A DNA stretch of 64,000 bases from the NCBI RefSeq assembly GCF_036507355.1, contig NZ_AP027877.1; one strand, 5' to 3'. The notes under the pieces are model-generated. The model saw nothing but the letters and a program-made list of their open reading frames with translations. It was not told where the DNA came from and made no database searches. The DNA is from Escherichia coli. Its GTDB lineage: Bacteria > Pseudomonadota > Gammaproteobacteria > Enterobacterales > Enterobacteriaceae. A program made the translations under genes and the position numbers. Below, piece after piece: positions 2,308-52,059 of the stretch (its first letter is position 1; the number at the start of each line of letters is the position of its first letter).

Positions 2308-2841
<534 letters not shown>

Positions 2842-3027
2842 TTAACTTTGTAACGTCATAGAGTCAAAGAAAAAGGCAGCCTGTGGTTGCCTTTTGCCAA
2901 TAATTCGCACACATTGCGGGTTACTGCTTTATTTTCGTTCAGTGCTGATAACGAACATCAACCTGCAAAACGAAGCGCATAGTTTAAAATGGCTATCATC
3001 AATACGCTATATCTGATGGAAAAAAAT

Positions 3028-3612
3028 ATGCCTAAACTTATTTTAGCCTCCACCTCGCCCTGGCGTCGCGCTCTTCTGGAAAAACTGCAAATCTCTTTTG
3101 AATGTGCAGCACCCGAGGTCGACGAAACTCCACACAGCGACGAATCACCGCGACAGTTGGTGCTTCGACTGGCACAAGAAAAAGCGCAATCTCTGGCGTC
3201 ACGTTATCCGGATCATTTAATTATTGGTTCAGACCAGGTATGTGTTCTTGATGGCGAAATCACCGGTAAACCGTTAACGGAAGAAAATGCCCGTCTGCAA
3301 TTACGCAAAGCCAGCGGCAATATCGTCACCTTCTATACTGGACTGGCGTTGTTTAATTCGGCGAATGGGCATCTACAAACAGAAGTGGAGCCTTTTGACG
3401 TCCATTTCCGTCACCTGAGCGAGGCGGAGATTGATAATTACGTGCGTAAAGAGCATCCCCTGCACTGCGCGGGTAGCTTTAAGAGTGAAGGATTTGGCAT
3501 TACTCTGTTTGAGCGTTTAGAGGGGCGTGATCCTAACACGCTGGTTGGTTTACCGCTAATCGCGCTGTGTCAGATGTTACGTCGGGAAGGGAAAAACCCG
3601 CTGATGGGATAG
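3028..3612 (+). CDS. yceF: Maf-like nucleotide pyrophosphatase
   Basis: ORF track 2989..3612; start moved to the internal [20 protein letters not shown], giving 194 aa. Confidence 0.88.
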
Positions 3613-3620
3613 TTTTTTGC

Positions 3621-3692
3621 GCCGGATGTGGTTACTTCGCATCCGGCAATCGGTGCTGGCGGCCTGATGCGGCGTAAACGCCTTATCAGGCC
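3621..3692. repeat. REP/BIME-type palindromic elements in the convergent yceF-rluC gap
   Basis: gccggatgtggttacttcgcatccggc followed by ggcctgatgcggcgtaaacgccttatcaggcc, both imperfect palindromes of the classic REP pattern. Confidence 0.6.
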
Positions 3693-3723: not shown

Positions 3724-4683
3724 TTAGCGCGCGTTACGCAGCTTTTGCAAACAACGCTTCAAACCTTCATCCATCGGCGCTTCGATACGCATCACCTCAC
3801 CGGTCCCCGGATGGGTAAACTTCAACGCTGCGGCGTGCAGGAACAGACGATTTAATCCCGTGCCTGCTTCAGTGAGCTGTCTGTCAAATTCACGGTCACC
3901 GTAGCGATCGTCAAAGGCAATCGGATGACCCGCATACTGTGTATGCACACGGATCTGATGAGTACGCCCTGTTACCGGGCTACAACGCACCAGGGTGGCA
4001 AATACATAGCGTTCTTCCACTTTAAAGCGTGTTTCCGACGGTTTGCCTTCCTGACTTACACGCACGATACGTTCGCCGCTTTGCAGAATATTTTTCAGTA
4101 ACGGCGCTTGAACGCTCTTCACATGCGACTGCCACTGACCACGCACCAGCGCCAGGTAATCTTTTTGCATCCCTTTTTCACGTAATTGCTCATGCAGAGA
4201 ACGCAACGCCGAGCGTTTTTTCGCTACCAGCAACACACCTGAAGTGTCCCGGTCGAGACGATGAACCAGTTCAAGGAACCGCGCTTCCGGGCGCAACGCC
4301 CGCAAACCTTCAATAACGCCGAAGCTTAAACCACTGCCGCCATGTACCGCCGTACCGGAAGGTTTATTCAGCACCAGGATATGATCATCTTCATATAAGA
4401 TGACGTCCGCCAGCGCCGCCACCTTTTGCAGATGTGGCGAAACCGCCTCTTCTTCCCGCTCAGCAACGCGAACCGGTGGGATACGCACCTCATCACCCGC
4501 TTCGAGTTTATATTCAGGCTTAATACGTTTTTTGTTCACCCGCACTTCGCCTTTACGCAAAATACGGTAAATCATACTTTTTGGTACGCCTTTCAATTGG
4601 GTACGCAAAAAGTTATCGATACGTTGCCCCGCTTCGTCAGCGGTGATAGCAACAATTTTTACGGATGGAGTCTCTGTTTTCAT
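3724..4683 (-). CDS. rluC: 23S rRNA pseudouridine synthase RluC
   Basis: ORF track 319 aa, MKTETPSVKIVAITADEAGQRIDNFLR; RluA-family core. Confidence 0.95.
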   Translation of the reverse strand: MKTETPSVKIVAITADEAGQRIDNFLRTQLKGVPKSMIYRILRKGEVRVNKKRIKPEYKLEAGDEVRIPPVRVAEREEEAVSPHLQKVAALADVILYEDDHILVLNKPSGTAVHGGSGLSFGVIEGLRALRPEARFLELVHRLDRDTSGVLLVAKKRSALRSLHEQLREKGMQKDYLALVRGQWQSHVKSVQAPLLKNILQSGERIVRVSQEGKPSETRFKVEERYVFATLVRCSPVTGRTHQIRVHTQYAGHPIAFDDRYGDREFDRQLTEAGTGLNRLFLHAAALKFTHPGTGEVMRIEAPMDEGLKRCLQKLRNAR

Positions 4684-5255
4684 GGTTGGCGATTCTAATT
4701 AGCCAACAGGATTCGCGCCACTCATTTTTCTATGCTTATATTTACTTTTGCACCTTATTACTTCACTGCGTGATCACTTTATTGATGGTTATTAAACCAA
4801 TCACCAGCAAGAAGTGAAAAAACTGTGAGTAAGCGGGTGATAAATGGTAAAAGTCATCTTGCTATAACAAGGCTTGCAGTGGAATAATGAGGCCGTTTCC
4901 GTGTCCATCCTTGTTAAAACAAGAAATTTTACGGAATAACCCATTTTGCCCGACCGATCATCCACGCAGCAATGGCGTAAGACGTATTGATCTTTCAGGC
5001 AGTTAGCGGGCTGCGGGTTGCAGTCCTTACCGGTAGATGGAAATATTTCTGGAGAGTAATACCCAGTCTGTTTCTTTGATAATTGCGCTGTTTTTCCGCA
5101 TGAAAAACGGGCAACCGACACTCTGCGCCTCTTTGAGCTGACGATAACCGTGAGGTTGGCGACGCGACTAGACACGAGGCCATCGGTTCACACCCGGAAA
5201 GGCGTTACTTTGCCCGCAGCTTAGTCGTCAATGTAAGAATAATGAGTAAGTTACG
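4684..5255 (+). promoter_or_regulatory. rne promoter region and long 5' leader
   Basis: 570-bp non-coding gap upstream of rne; established knowledge that the rne leader is long, structured and autoregulated; promoter positions not determined here. Confidence 0.55.
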
Positions 5256-8200
5256 ATGAAAAGAATGTTAATCAACGCAACTCAGCAGGAAGAGTTGCGC
5301 GTTGCCCTTGTAGATGGGCAGCGTCTGTATGACCTGGATATCGAAAGTCCAGGGCACGAGCAGAAAAAGGCAAACATCTACAAAGGTAAAATCACCCGCA
5401 TTGAACCGAGTCTGGAAGCTGCTTTTGTTGATTACGGCGCTGAACGTCACGGTTTCCTCCCACTAAAAGAAATTGCCCGCGAATATTTCCCTGCTAACTA
5501 CAGTGCTCATGGTCGTCCCAACATTAAAGATGTGTTGCGTGAAGGTCAGGAAGTCATTGTTCAGATCGATAAAGAAGAGCGCGGCAACAAAGGCGCGGCA
5601 TTAACCACCTTTATCAGTCTGGCGGGTAGCTATCTGGTTCTGATGCCGAACAACCCGCGCGCGGGTGGCATTTCTCGCCGTATCGAAGGCGACGACCGTA
5701 CCGAATTAAAAGAAGCACTGGCAAGCCTTGAACTGCCGGAAGGCATGGGGCTTATCGTGCGCACCGCTGGCGTCGGCAAATCTGCTGAGGCGCTGCAATG
5801 GGATTTAAGCTTCCGTCTGAAACACTGGGAAGCCATCAAAAAAGCCGCTGAAAGCCGTCCGGCTCCGTTCCTGATTCATCAGGAGAGCAACGTAATCGTT
5901 CGCGCATTCCGCGATTACTTACGCCAGGACATCGGCGAAATCCTTATCGATAACCCGAAAGTGCTCGAGCTGGCACGTCAGCATATCGCTGCATTAGGTC
6001 GCCCGGATTTCAGCAGCAAAATCAAACTGTACACCGGCGAGATCCCGCTGTTCAGCCACTACCAGATCGAGTCACAGATCGAGTCCGCCTTCCAGCGTGA
6101 AGTTCGTCTGCCGTCTGGTGGTTCCATTGTTATCGACAGCACCGAAGCGTTAACGGCCATCGACATCAACTCCGCACGCGCGACCCGCGGCGGCGATATC
6201 GAAGAAACCGCGTTTAACACTAACCTCGAAGCTGCCGATGAGATTGCTCGTCAGCTGCGCCTGCGTGACCTCGGCGGCCTGATTGTTATCGACTTCATCG
6301 ACATGACGCCAGTACGCCACCAGCGTGCGGTAGAAAACCGTCTGCGTGAAGCGGTGCGTCAGGACCGTGCGCGTATTCAAATCAGCCATATTTCTCGCTT
6401 TGGCCTGCTGGAAATGTCCCGTCAGCGCCTGAGCCCATCACTGGGTGAATCCAGCCATCACGTCTGCCCGCGCTGCTCCGGTACCGGTACCGTGCGTGAC
6501 AACGAATCGCTGTCGCTCTCTATTCTGCGTCTGATCGAAGAAGAAGCGCTGAAAGAGAACACCCAGGAAGTTCACGCCATTGTTCCTGTGCCAATCGCTT
6601 CTTATCTGCTGAATGAAAAACGTTCTGCAGTGAATGCGATTGAAACTCGTCAGGACGGCGTGCGCTGTGTGATTGTGCCAAACGATCAGATGGAAACCCC
6701 GCACTACCATGTGCTGCGCGTGCGCAAAGGGGAAGAAACCCCAACCTTAAGCTACATGCTGCCGAAGCTGCATGAAGAAGCGATGGCGCTGCCGTCTGAA
6801 GAAGAGTTCGCTGAACGTAAGCGTCCGGAACAACCTGCGCTGGCTACCTTTGCCATGCCGGATGTGCCGCCAGCACCAACCCCAGCTGAACCTGCCGCGC
6901 CTGTCGTAGCCCCAGCACCTAAAGCTGCACCGGCAACACCAGCAGCTCCTGCACAACCTGGGCTGTTAAGCCGCTTCTTCGGTGCACTGAAAGCGCTGTT
7001 CAGCGGTGGTGAAGAAACCAAACCGACCGAGCAACCAGCACCGAAAGCAGAAGCGAAACCGGAACGTCAACAGGATCGTCGTAAGCCTCGTCAGAACAAC
7101 CGCCGTGACCGTAATGAGCGCCGCGATACCCGTAGTGAACGTACAGAAGGCAGCGATAATCGCGAAGAAAACCGTCGTAATCGTCGCCAGGCACAGCAGC
7201 AGACTGCCGAGACGCGTGAGAGTCGTCAGCAGGCTGAGGTAACGGAAAAAGCGCGTACCACCGACGAGCAGCAAGCGCCGCGTCGTGAACGTAGCCGCCG
7301 CCGTAATGATGATAAACGTCAGGCGCAACAAGAAGCGAAGGCGCTGAATGTTGAAGAGCAATCTGTTCAGGAAACCGAACAGGAAGAACGTGTACGTCCG
7401 GTTCAGCCGCGTCGTAAACAGCGTCAGCTCAATCAGAAAGTGCGTTACGAGCAAAGCGTAGCCGAAGAAGCGGTAGTCGCACCGGTGGTTGAAGAAACTG
7501 TCGCTGCCGAACCAATTGTTCAGGAAGCGCCAGCTCCACGCACAGAACTGGTGAAAGTCCCGCTGCCAGTCGTAGCGCAAACTGCACCAGAACAGCAAGA
7601 AGAGAACAATGCTGATAACCGTGACAACGGTGGCATGCCGCGTCGTTCTCGCCGCTCGCCTCGTCACCTGCGCGTAAGTGGTCAGCGTCGTCGTCGCTAT
7701 CGTGACGAGCGTTATCCAACCCAGTCGCCAATGCCGTTGACCGTGGCGTGCGCGTCTCCGGAACTGGCCTCTGGCAAAGTCTGGATCCGCTATCCAATTG
7801 TACGTCCGCAAGATGTACAGGTTGAAGAGCAGCGCGAACAGGAAGAAGTACATGTGCAGCCGATGGTGACTGAGGTCCCTGTCGCCGCCGCTATCGAACC
7901 GGTTGTTAGCGCGCCAGTTGTTGAAGAAGTGGCCGGTGTCGTAGAAGCCCCCGTTCAGGTTGCCGAACCGCAACCGGAAGTGGTTGAAACGACGCATCCT
8001 GAAGTGATTGCTGCCGCGGTAACTGAACAGCCGCAGGTGATTACCGAGTCTGATGTTGCCGTAGCCCAGGAAGTTGCAGAACAAGCAGAACCGGTGGTTG
8101 AACCGCAGGAAGAGACGGCAGATATTGAAGAAGTTGTCGAAACTGCTGAGGTTGTAGTTGCTGAACCTGAAGTTGTTGCTCAACCTGCCGCGCCAGTCGT

Positions 8201-8441
8201 CGCTGAAGTCGCAGCAGAAGTTGAAACGGTAGCTGCGGTCGAACCTGAGGTCACCGTTGAGCATAACCACGCTACCGCGCCAATGACGCGCGCTCCAGCA
8301 CCGGAATATGTTCCGGAGGCACCGCGTCACAGTGACTGGCAGCGCCCTACTTTTGCCTTCGAAGGTAAAGGTGCCGCAGGTGGTCATACGGCAACACATC
8401 ATGCCTCTGCCGCTCCTGCGCGACCGCAACCTGTTGAGTAA
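5256..8441 (+). CDS. rne: Ribonuclease E
   Basis: ORF track 1061 aa; N-terminal S1/catalytic region then Arg-rich, Pro/Ala-rich and acidic low-complexity C-terminal half. Confidence 0.97.
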
Positions 8442-8461
8442 TAATTAGCTCAAGTAATCAA

Positions 8462-8489
8462 GCCCTGGTAACTGCCAGGGCTTTTTTAT
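8462..8489 (+). terminator. Intrinsic terminator after rne
   Basis: gccctggtaactgccagggc hairpin followed by a T-run. Confidence 0.6.
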
Positions 8490-8635
8490 TTCATCTTTGA
8501 ATCAACATATTAAAATTCATCGAATGGCATCCTTGCTAACCAACAATGCAAAATAGGCAAAAAAATGCCCGCCCCGGCGATCCCAGAGCAGGCAGACAAA
8601 ACATACCCAGTTTCATGATATGTTTTAAAGCGAAA

Positions 8636-26961: not shown

Positions 26962-27011
26962 TATCCTTTGTGTCCGGCAAAAACATCCCTTCAGCCGGAG
27001 CATAGAGATTA

Positions 27012-36106: not shown

Positions 36107-36215
36107 TGCCAGATGCGACGTGAACACCTTACCTAACCTACAAAATCTCGCAAAATCAATAAATTGCAGGAACGATGTAGGCCTGATAAGCGTAGCGCAT
36201 CAGGCAACTACGTTT

Positions 36216-45674: not shown

Positions 45675-46427
45675 GTTGTCACCCTGGACCTGGTCGTACA
45701 TTTAAGAAATTAAATCATTTCAACTTGGTTGTTAACGCAACCTGTATTTTGTTAACGCTGCGTTACGATGGAAAGTATGTCTGCGGAAATATTTTTAATA
45801 ACTCACCCGCGCGTTGTATTTTTCTTTTTTTGTTCATACCAAAGTATTAAAACCCACGTAAATACGCTGTTATCTACGCAAAAAATATTTTGTTTTCTTT
45901 TAAATCTCCGTTTTCCGCTAGCAAAAAACACCAGACAGTCATTCTTCTTGCCCGTCGCTGATTGCTGCGATATGTCTTGCGCACAAGCCGTGACAAACCT
46001 CGTCTTTTTGCAGTAAAAAATTGTCCACGGTGGTGTGGAGAAAAAACAAGAACGTTTTACATGACGAAAGGACTACACCGAAATATTTTTTATATGCATT
46101 ATTAGTAAGTTAGCACCATTTGTATGATTTTTTAAAATTGTGCAATAAAAACCAAATGTACAACTTTTCTATCATTCCTAAACTTAATAAAACCTTAAAG
46201 TTAACATTTTAATATAATGAGTTACATTTAGTTACATGTTTAACACTTGATTTAAGATTTGTAATGGCTAGATTGAAATCAGATGTAATCCATTAGTTTT
46301 ATATTTTACCCATTTAGGGCTGATTTATTACTACACACAGCAGTGCAACATCTGTCAGTACTTCTGGTGCTTCTATTTTAGAGGCAGCTGTCAGGTGTGC
46401 GATCAATAAAAAAAGCGGGGTTTCATC
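45675..46427. promoter_or_regulatory. Divergent csgB / csgD intergenic control region
   Basis: 753-bp non-coding, strongly A+T-rich gap between divergent curli operons; individual binding sites not resolved. Confidence 0.8.
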
Positions 46428-51971: not shown

Positions 51972-52059
51972 GGTGAGGTGTCCGAGTGGCTGAAGGAGCA
52001 CGCCTGGAAAGTGTGTATACGGCAACGTATCGGGGGTTCGAATCCCCCCCTCACCGCCA
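51972..52059 (+). tRNA. serX: tRNA-Ser (anticodon GGA)
   Basis: 88-nt sequence ggtgaggtgtccgagtggctgaaggagcacgcctGGAaagtgtg...ggttcgaatccccccctcaccgcca with long variable arm and T-loop GTTCGAATC, followed by a hairpin plus T-run terminator. Confidence 0.92.

Follow-up and report, generated by a model that had tools for sequence, protein, structure and literature searches.

The window analysed here, a stretch of 64,000 nucleotides from Escherichia coli (RefSeq assembly GCF_036507355.1, contig NZ_AP027877.1), carries the gene for ribonuclease E, rne, together with its 5' untranslated leader, a divergent rluC/rne promoter region and, 19 nt past the rne stop codon, a hairpin resembling an intrinsic terminator (a 10-bp stem with 6 G-C pairs, followed by TTTTATTT). 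Two long open reading frames lie antisense to the gene, and their coordinates, like those of rne, agree with the initial annotation of this DNA (Table 1).

Table 1 Features of the rne locus in the window. Residue numbers of the six microdomains follow PMC4435900, and their sequences in the window are identical to those of K-12
Feature	Residues	Coordinates	Strand	Basis
Divergent rluC (-)/rne (+) promoter region, AT-rich		4684..4894	.	promoter scan, GC 0.38-0.40
rne 5' untranslated leader, 361 nt, cis-acting element for feedback autoregulation		4895..5255	+	Rfam RF00040 rne5
rne CDS, ribonuclease E, 1061 aa		5256..8441	+	ORF call, Pfam domains
Catalytic N-terminal half	1-529	5256..6842	+	Pfam domains
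Non-genic antisense ORF, 89 aa, different antisense register		6752..7021	-	ORF list, stop map
Non-catalytic, compositionally biased scaffold half	530-1061	6843..8441	+	composition, K-12 identity
MTS	565-582	6948-7001	+	PMC4435900 numbering
Non-genic 'shadow' ORF, 487 aa, codon-aligned antisense register		6966..8429	-	stop map, shuffle tests
AR1	604-644	7065-7187	+	PMC4435900 numbering
RhlB site (HBS)	719-731	7410-7448	+	PMC4435900 numbering
AR2	796-814	7641-7697	+	PMC4435900 numbering
Enolase site (EBS)	834-850	7755-7805	+	PMC4435900 numbering
PNPase site (PBS)	1021-1061	8316-8438	+	PMC4435900 numbering
Intrinsic-terminator-like hairpin and T-run		8460..8493	+	terminator scan

To judge from its sequence, the gene is an ordinary, well-studied E. 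coli rne, as had been proposed. Its product shows the domain order of the RNase E family, an S1 RNA-binding domain (Pfam S1, residues 36-117, E=1e-12) and after it the RNase E/G catalytic domain (RNase_E_G, 121-391, E=1e-98), with a thioredoxin-like match at 403-488 and a PNPase-binding match at 1022-1058. Both catalytic aspartates, D303 (in AIDINS) and D346, are present, and the Zn-link CPRCSGTG at residues 404-411 fits the pattern CPxCxGxG. A C-terminal extension with MTS, AR1, HBS, AR2, EBS and PBS marks the protein as RNase E and not RNase G. Compared with K-12 RNase E (WP_000827360.1), the product is equal in length and differs by a single amino-acid change, A669T, while 38 synonymous substitutions separate the two genes; an exact-sequence look-up recovered the identical protein from public E. 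coli records. Across complete E. coli genomes, rne is annotated in 5425 of 5426, at 96-99% identity. Endoribonuclease activity and degradosome assembly would be expected of a protein that is one substitution away from the characterised K-12 enzyme. In comparisons with E. albertii, Citrobacter, Superficieibacter and Enterobacter, sense dN/dS is 0.002-0.03 for the N-terminal half; the cross-species figure for the C-terminal half is ~0.1-0.2.

The gap between the rluC start codon, which ends at 4683, and the rne ATG measures 572 bp, and was previously read, at about 570 bp, as the structured autoregulatory leader of rne. The leader is indeed there, but it accounts for only 361 nt of the gap, and the remaining 211 bp form the promoter region. 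A promoter scan places a sigma-70-like rne promoter here, with a -35 element TTGCTA at 4859-4864 and a -10 element AATAAT at 4883-4888, separated by an 18-nt spacer with TG. This promoter implies a transcription start near G4895, which coincides with position 1 of a match to the Rfam family rne5 (RF00040) that extends over 4895..5231 on the same strand, covers the full model (1-333 of 333) and stops 24 nt short of the rne ATG. At 260.1 bits (E=1e-81) the match stands well above the curated gathering score of 180 bits. A scan of 12 Enterobacterales loci recovered this family upstream of rne in every one, with scores of 232-320 bits, among which the window lies mid-range and differs in nothing notable, whereas the leader of Pseudomonas rne belongs to an unrelated family, rne-II.

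Four E. coli strains show no substitution in the leader, compared with 1-2% divergence in the flanking genes, and the promoter region shows none relative to K-12 or BE2-5 and about 2% relative to two further strains. Both the leader length of 361 nt and its role in RNase E feedback have been published (PMC10989929), and we take from that work the view that the leader mediates RNase E-dependent control of rne mRNA decay. When the leader is folded as a single sequence its minimum free energy (-103 kcal/mol) is no more stable than that of shuffled sequences (z = -0.66); folding energy does not discriminate here, and consequently the evidence for structure rests on the covariance model instead. 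An element named 'hp2' in PMC6736130 belongs to rplM and does not concern rne.

RNase E's C-terminal half had been described as low in complexity, and in this respect the description holds. Six amino acids (A, E, V, P, R and Q) account for 71% of residues 530-1061 as opposed to 43% of residues 1-529, and mean Shannon entropy over 40 residues is 3.13 bits (minimum 2.26) in the C-terminal half compared with 3.73 bits in the N-terminal half. The bias is distributed over an R/Q/E-rich stretch (597-730) and a V/E/A/P-rich stretch (845-1010). Following the literature, this scaffold would be disordered, and its microdomains would serve in binding the membrane, RNA, RhlB, enolase and PNPase.

The further description of this half as 'repetitive' and 'periodic' was overstated. 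Tandem repeats have been reported as a conserved feature of the non-catalytic regions of RNase E in gamma-Proteobacteria (PMC4435900), and one could envisage a genuine tandem array, its copy number differing from strain to strain, given that PVVEE-like and RR(K/N)xRQ-like motifs recur in dispersed form and that in-frame C-terminal deletions occur in E. coli (12 bp and 609 bp), the single large one having arisen between 13-bp direct repeats. The 609-bp deletion, in GN4738, would take out residues 745-947 and with them AR2 and the enolase site, although an assembly collapse between the 13-bp repeats may have produced it. However, Tandem Repeats Finder detected no array in 6843..8441, self-BLASTP of RNase E returned no internal repeat at E<=0.01, and what is present consists only of dispersed, degenerate motifs of 14-37 nt and a weak autocorrelation at short lags (3 and 7). 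Moreover, when 60 E. coli genomes were sampled evenly, 58 had exactly the same C-terminal length, the deletions being rare. We therefore regard an array as highly improbable and already largely refuted: the scaffold is biased in composition but neither tandemly repeated nor clearly periodic, and its length seldom varies in E. coli.

The longer antisense frame begins with TTG (counting from its first ATG, that of 8402, leaves 478 aa) and lies in the codon-aligned register, known as frame -1, where stop codons can arise only opposite sense TTA, CTA or TCA (bioRxiv 10.1101/724807). Across rne this register contains 12 antisense stops, opposite TTA (9), CTA (1) and TCA (2), all of which fall within codons 1-571; the last, opposite a synonymous TTA at Leu571, is the stop codon of the 487-aa ORF itself. 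Beyond it, residues 572-1061 include just 9 Leu (CTG x7, CTC, TTG) and 18 Ser (AGC, TCT, AGT, TCG), none of them encoded by TTA, CTA or TCA, and it is for this reason that the frame stays open over the last 490 codons of rne. The open frame had formerly been ascribed to codon periodicity and repeats; register and composition, that is, a C-terminal half almost without Leu and Ser, replace that cause. Scoring codon usage on both strands, as had been suggested, gives 0.34 bits per codon in the sense direction and 0.03 in the antisense direction. The predicted antisense product would consist of 13.5% Phe, 13.5% Arg, 13.1% Leu, 3.7% Cys and 2.7% Trp, and neither it nor the 89-aa ORF has a match in Pfam. 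Opposite the shorter frame lie a segment rich in Pro and Ala and the membrane-targeting sequence. Its register stays open for no longer than expected, the longest run falling short of the mean under synonymous permutation (P = 0.85), and ORFs of 89 aa or more number 121 in the window. The 89-aa ORF is an ordinary one, neither selected nor functional.

Whether composition and chance suffice for a frame of this length depends on the expectation adopted. A typical protein composition would yield the length of the 487-aa ORF with a probability of about 3e-7. When the synonymous codons of rne itself are permuted, an open run of at least 490 codons arises with P = 0.08-0.10, and when codons are drawn according to window-wide synonymous usage, with P ~0.015-0.02. 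The absence of TTA, CTA and TCA from 27 Leu/Ser codons is thus mildly unlikely under window-wide usage, and weak avoidance may be at work. It could accordingly be proposed that selection on rne has removed these codons from the C-terminal half beyond what composition and chance would do, for reasons such as translation speed or the avoidance of RNase E-sensitive AU-rich sites, and the uneven distribution of the three codons along the gene, together with their absence from the C-terminal half in four other E. coli strains, is in keeping with this. Yet the departure is not significant against the synonymous pool of rne, the C-terminal half of close relatives includes 2-6 of these codons with no apparent harm, and a new TTA is tolerated at codon 571 in the window itself. 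Selection of this kind is in our view very unlikely, and the missing codons would be explained equally well if rne avoided rare codons. Given the actual RNase E sequence, the length of the 487-aa ORF is unremarkable, far though it lies beyond the expectation for a typical composition.

Comparisons among relatives bear directly on whether the antisense frames are genes. The initial annotation held that they are not, and named conservation among the observations that would speak against it; on inspection the longer frame proves not to be conserved. Antisense stops interrupt the C-terminal half in every sister species (5 in E. albertii, 2 in Citrobacter, 4 in Superficieibacter and 4 in Enterobacter), and in 12 other Enterobacterales the longest antisense open run amounts to 117-389 codons, so the 487-aa ORF is not kept intact in related species. 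Across 60 species the longest run tracks GC content: in several Pseudomonas (GC 0.63-0.67) the antisense frame is open along the whole of rne, and in low-GC taxa it reaches 63-140 codons. Over the span of the ORF, NG86 estimates of dN/dS in all comparisons run from 0.04 to 0.20 in the sense direction and from 1.04 to 2.8 in the antisense direction; against other species the same codons give 0.10-0.20 and 1.04-1.42 respectively, and within E. coli, where counts are small, the antisense values are 1.2-2.8. Purifying selection on an antisense product is absent by this measure, although overlap with a constrained gene biases antisense dN/dS upward, such that a value above 1 is not decisive alone, and consequently it is the stops in sister species that carry the weight. 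Of the 16-44 C-terminal substitutions seen within E. coli, 13-34 affect the third position of a sense codon, equivalent to the first position of an antisense codon.

A potential counter-argument is that the 487-aa ORF, or a part of it starting from an internal ATG such as that at 8402, is a young overlapping gene confined to E. coli and Shigella and translated from an antisense transcript, in the manner of the embedded antisense genes of EHEC and Pseudomonas. Claims that long antisense ORFs are translated exist for other bacteria (PMC8850804, bioRxiv 10.1101/2020.11.18.388249), and each of five full-length E. coli sequences that were compared keeps the frame open over 490-563 codons. That variation, however, results from a synonymous change in rne, the K-12 codon 571 being TTG (open run 563) where the window has TTA (490), and the frame is broken at 5 sites as near as E. 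albertii; the dN/dS values above and the odd composition of a product rich in Phe and Arg also tell against a gene. Shine-Dalgarno-like AGGAG and GAGG motifs stand 11 nt and 1 nt upstream of ATG 8402, yet no promoter-like site was detected between the flgL terminator (8594..8566) and the start of the ORF; both results come from consensus scans, which are weak either way, and the putative ribosome-binding site is probably fortuitous. Matching proteins do exist in a public collection, as a cluster of 268 members. Nevertheless, all three members that we traced derive from metagenome scaffolds on which a 100-N gap inside rne destroys the gene, so that the true rne call is lost; with three of 268 checked, we regard the database copies of the antisense protein as artefacts. 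Furthermore, RefSeq annotates nothing antisense at 6966..8429, a literature search found no specific report of antisense genes or transcripts within rne, another on 'shadow ORFs' brought up nothing relevant, and a survey of E. coli overlapping genes (a preprint) never mentions rne. A young gene is consequently extremely unlikely. We attach just as little credence to the related idea of a very young, lineage-restricted proto-gene in E. coli, by which part of the frame (starting, for instance, at ATG 8402) would undergo low-level translation, with selection on it undetectable as yet. The antisense frames are probably untranslated, and the 487-aa ORF is a by-product of protein composition and frame register, not a real gene.

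Taken together, the region is almost certainly a standard E. coli rne locus, with an autoregulatory leader and passive antisense shadow ORFs. This reading is founded on the observed identity of gene and leader, the register of the antisense frame, the logic and statistics of its stops, its non-conservation and the lack of purifying selection upon it. Under the proposed sequence of events, a sigma-70-type promoter with its -10 element ending at 4888 would give rise to an rne mRNA with a structured leader, and RNase E, according to published work, would bind and cleave its own leader, throttling its own synthesis. The mRNA would encode an N-terminal catalytic half that is conserved and an intrinsically disordered scaffold whose R/Q/E-rich and V/E/A/P-rich parts, in that order, would carry the short binding microdomains. 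The 487-aa frame, and likewise the 89-aa ORF, would be a passive outcome that is neither selected nor functional. None of this is new, this being a textbook rne gene with a leader that is already known, but it does call for caution in annotation. A stop-free frame of 487-563 aa opposite an essential gene looks striking, even though its register and a near-lack of Leu and Ser account for it, and the artefact leaks into databases, as the above cluster illustrates. Filters based on register and on TTA/CTA/TCA content would remove such entries.

The closest known system is the rne locus of K-12, which has the same neighbours (yceF, rluC, rne and flgL), an identical domain order and all six published microdomain sequences of the degradosome scaffold, and which is unlike the window in its synonymous codon at Leu571 and the correspondingly longer antisense frame. 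Claimed antisense genes, such as ano and laoB in EHEC and those of P. aeruginosa (PMC5960689, PMC5810103, PMC8850804), are likewise long ORFs antisense within an annotated gene; however, Ribo-seq signals, phenotypes or purifying selection underlie those claims, whereas the rne ORF, when tested for conservation and purifying selection, showed neither. Frame -1 shadow ORFs in general arise by the identical mechanism (bioRxiv 10.1101/724807), under which genes with little Leu and Ser, or with a high GC content, harbour long antisense frames free of stops, a rule illustrated by the whole-gene antisense frames of Pseudomonas rne. What differs in the present case is the cause, which lies in local amino-acid composition within a genome of moderate GC content and not in genome-wide GC.

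We find that the two antisense ORFs inside rne, the RNase E gene, are not genes, as the initial annotation had proposed, yet the longer of them owes its length to amino-acid composition and reading-frame register, and not to the codon periodicity and repeats invoked there; this is the one correction to an overall reading that was right. The 487-aa ORF (6966..8429, minus strand) is codon-aligned with rne, and in this register a minus-strand TAA, TAG or TGA stop arises only where rne uses TTA, CTA or TCA, respectively. Each of the frame's 12 stops inside the gene lies opposite one of these codons, the last being TTA at Leu571, and residues 572-1061 include only 9 Leu and 18 Ser, none of them encoded by TTA, CTA or TCA. 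The chance of 490 or more open codons in a row varies with the null model chosen, from 3e-7 under typical protein composition, to 0.02 with codons resampled from the genes of the window, to 0.08-0.10 when synonymous codons are permuted within rne. Consequently, protein composition explains nearly all of the open-frame effect. The 89-aa ORF (6752..7021, minus strand) sits in another register, where permutation predicts a longer maximal run than the one seen (P=0.85), and 121 ORFs in the window reach 89 aa or more. By codon usage the sense frame scores 0.34 bits per codon, the codon-aligned antisense frame 0.03, and the other frames below zero.

Conservation of the antisense frame, which the initial annotation had named as evidence that would refute its reading, was tested and is lacking. 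TTA, CTA and TCA are absent from the rne C-terminal half in K-12 and three other E. coli strains, and the open run spans 559-563 codons in the three of these with a full-length or near-full-length gene, and 360 in strain GN4738, which carries a deletion in rne. Codon 571 (6966-6968), in the membrane-targeting sequence, reads TTA in the window, as it does in E. albertii, and TTG in K-12, and this synonymous change sets the end of the ORF (490 open codons in the window vs 563 in K-12). In sister taxa the frame is interrupted, with 5 stops in the C-terminal half in E. albertii, 2 in Citrobacter, and 4 each in Superficieibacter and Enterobacter. Nei-Gojobori dN/dS over the ORF span is 0.04-0.20 for sense and 1.04-2.8 for antisense, the latter biased upward by the overlap with rne, and hence the stops in sister species are the stronger evidence. 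Among E. coli strains, the majority of C-terminal substitutions hit the third position of the sense codon, equivalent to the first position of the antisense codon. In a set of 60 rne genes, the length of the longest open antisense run follows GC content, reaching over the full gene in several Pseudomonas and over 63-140 codons in low-GC taxa. Pseudomonas entomophila, whose 1099 rne codons contain no stop in the codon-aligned antisense register, clearly illustrates the effect of GC and codon usage.

RefSeq carries no annotation for the antisense frame, Pfam has no family for either product, and the literature searched reports no antisense gene within rne. A K-12 version of the frame from an internal ATG (546 aa) is present in a 15-billion-protein collection, in a cluster of 268 members. 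All but one of the members read derive from ENA metagenome assemblies (320, 416, 527 and 546 aa), the exception being a 96-aa NCBI fragment labelled P. aeruginosa hypothetical protein. Each of three members traced lies on an ENA metagenome scaffold where a 100-N gap breaks rne in its 3' part (after CDS nt 2828, 3140 and 3118); rne was not called there, and the antisense ORF starts just beyond the gap. These gaps, together with 55-nt overlapping ends in two of the three, suggest a tendency of metagenome assemblies from short reads to break within the low-complexity C-terminal region, and such a break would lead a gene caller to report the antisense ORF instead of rne. The entries traced are gene-calling artefacts. 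The flgL terminator (8594..8566) stands upstream of the ORF on the minus strand, and no promoter-like site was found between it and the ORF start; ATG 8402 is preceded by AGGAG (11 nt upstream) and GAGG (1 nt upstream), which we regard as fortuitous.

The C-terminal half was described as low-complexity, repetitive and periodic, of which the first holds and the other two overstate the case. A, E, V, P, R and Q make up 71% of residues 530-1061 vs 43% in the N-terminal half, window entropy is 3.13 vs 3.73 bits, and an R/Q/E-rich part accompanies a V/E/A/P-rich part. Neither Tandem Repeats Finder (C-terminal half) nor Self-BLASTP of RNase E detected an internal repeat, and what repetition there is consists of dispersed degenerate 14-37-nt motifs and a weak autocorrelation (lags 3 and 7). 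C-terminal length is identical in 58 of 60 genomes sampled evenly from 5425. Strain Z226-7 has lost VAEV from a VAEVAAEV motif (12 bp), and S1-IND-02-A has a deletion of equal size. In GN4738 (NZ_CM177114.1), a 609-bp in-frame deletion of residues 745-947 (window equivalent 7488-8096), flanked by the 13-bp direct repeat ACCGGTGGTTGAA, leaves an 858-aa protein without the AR2 and enolase-binding microdomains; it may be either a genuine variant or the product of a collapse in assembly. Deletions can thus arise by way of the dispersed motifs, but they are rare.

Table. Features of the rne locus and other Rfam matches in the window
Feature	Position	Strand	Source
rne ORF, 1061 aa	5256..8441	+	mechanical ORF list
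Flanking ORF, 319 aa	3724..4683	-	mechanical ORF list
Flanking ORF, 317 aa	8636..9589	-	mechanical ORF list
S1 domain, RNase E	residues 36-117		Pfam
RNase_E_G domain, RNase E	residues 121-391		Pfam
Thioredoxin-like domain, RNase E	residues 403-488		Pfam
PNPase-binding motif, RNase E	residues 1022-1058		Pfam
SraB sRNA	2866-3034	-	Rfam, 210 bits
PyrC leader	26962-27011		Rfam, above gathering score
ES036 (CssrF)	36142-36184		Rfam, above gathering score
ES056 sRNA	46281-46372		Rfam, above gathering score
tRNA	51972-52056		Rfam, above gathering score

The identity of the gene is clear. The 3758-bp interval was matched by megablast in 5425 of 5426 complete E. coli genomes (96-99% identity), is annotated as rne in every one, and has yceF, rluC and flgL as neighbours. 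A669T is the sole difference between the protein and that of K-12; the catalytic residues D303 and D346 are retained, as is the Zn-link CPRCSGTG, and public E. coli records include an identical sequence. The rne-flgL spacer (about 8442-8635) is the segment most divergent from Z226-7 (NZ_CP159639.1; 11% substitutions), where it holds an inserted DUF1778/GNAT toxin-antitoxin-like gene pair that the window lacks. Between yceF and rluC lies a palindromic REP/BIME-like element (3620-3692), matching Rfam naRNA4 on both strands at ~54 bits, slightly below the gathering score of 59.5. The 5' extension of mechanical ORF 2989..3612 lies partly over SraB, which makes a yceF start beyond the first ATG probable; RefSeq lists yceF at 585 nt. 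The four distal Rfam matches are all known E. coli features.

Between the rluC start codon and the rne ATG lies a gap of 572 bp, which the initial annotation considered consistent with the leader. A full-model match to RF00040 (rne5) occupies 4895..5231 (260 bits, gathering score 180, E=1e-81), and a sigma-70-like promoter, in which an 18-nt spacer that includes TG separates TTGCTA from AATAAT (last base 4888), implies transcription from ~4895. The leader so defined measures exactly 361 nt, as published, with feedback control, for E. coli rne (PMC10989929). The remainder (4684..4894, 211 bp) is an AT-rich divergent promoter region. Compared with four E. coli strains, the leader shows zero substitutions, while the flanking genes differ by 1-2%. 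Its single-sequence folding energy is no better than that of shuffles (z = -0.66), so the case for structure is made by the covariance model.

The locus is a known gene with a known leader. The rne5 family lies upstream of rne in 12 of 12 Enterobacterales loci scanned, whereas at a Pseudomonas locus its place is taken by rne-II, found ahead of P. entomophila rne (2837-3160 of its locus, 223 bits) and unrelated to rne5. The two-part composition of the scaffold agrees with the bipartite bias described for gamma-proteobacterial RNase E (PMC4435900), and all six published microdomains are present and identical to K-12. Artefacts of the kind seen in the antisense ORFs are also known, the codon-aligned frame being an instance of the frame -1 stop rule described as general (bioRxiv 10.1101/724807).
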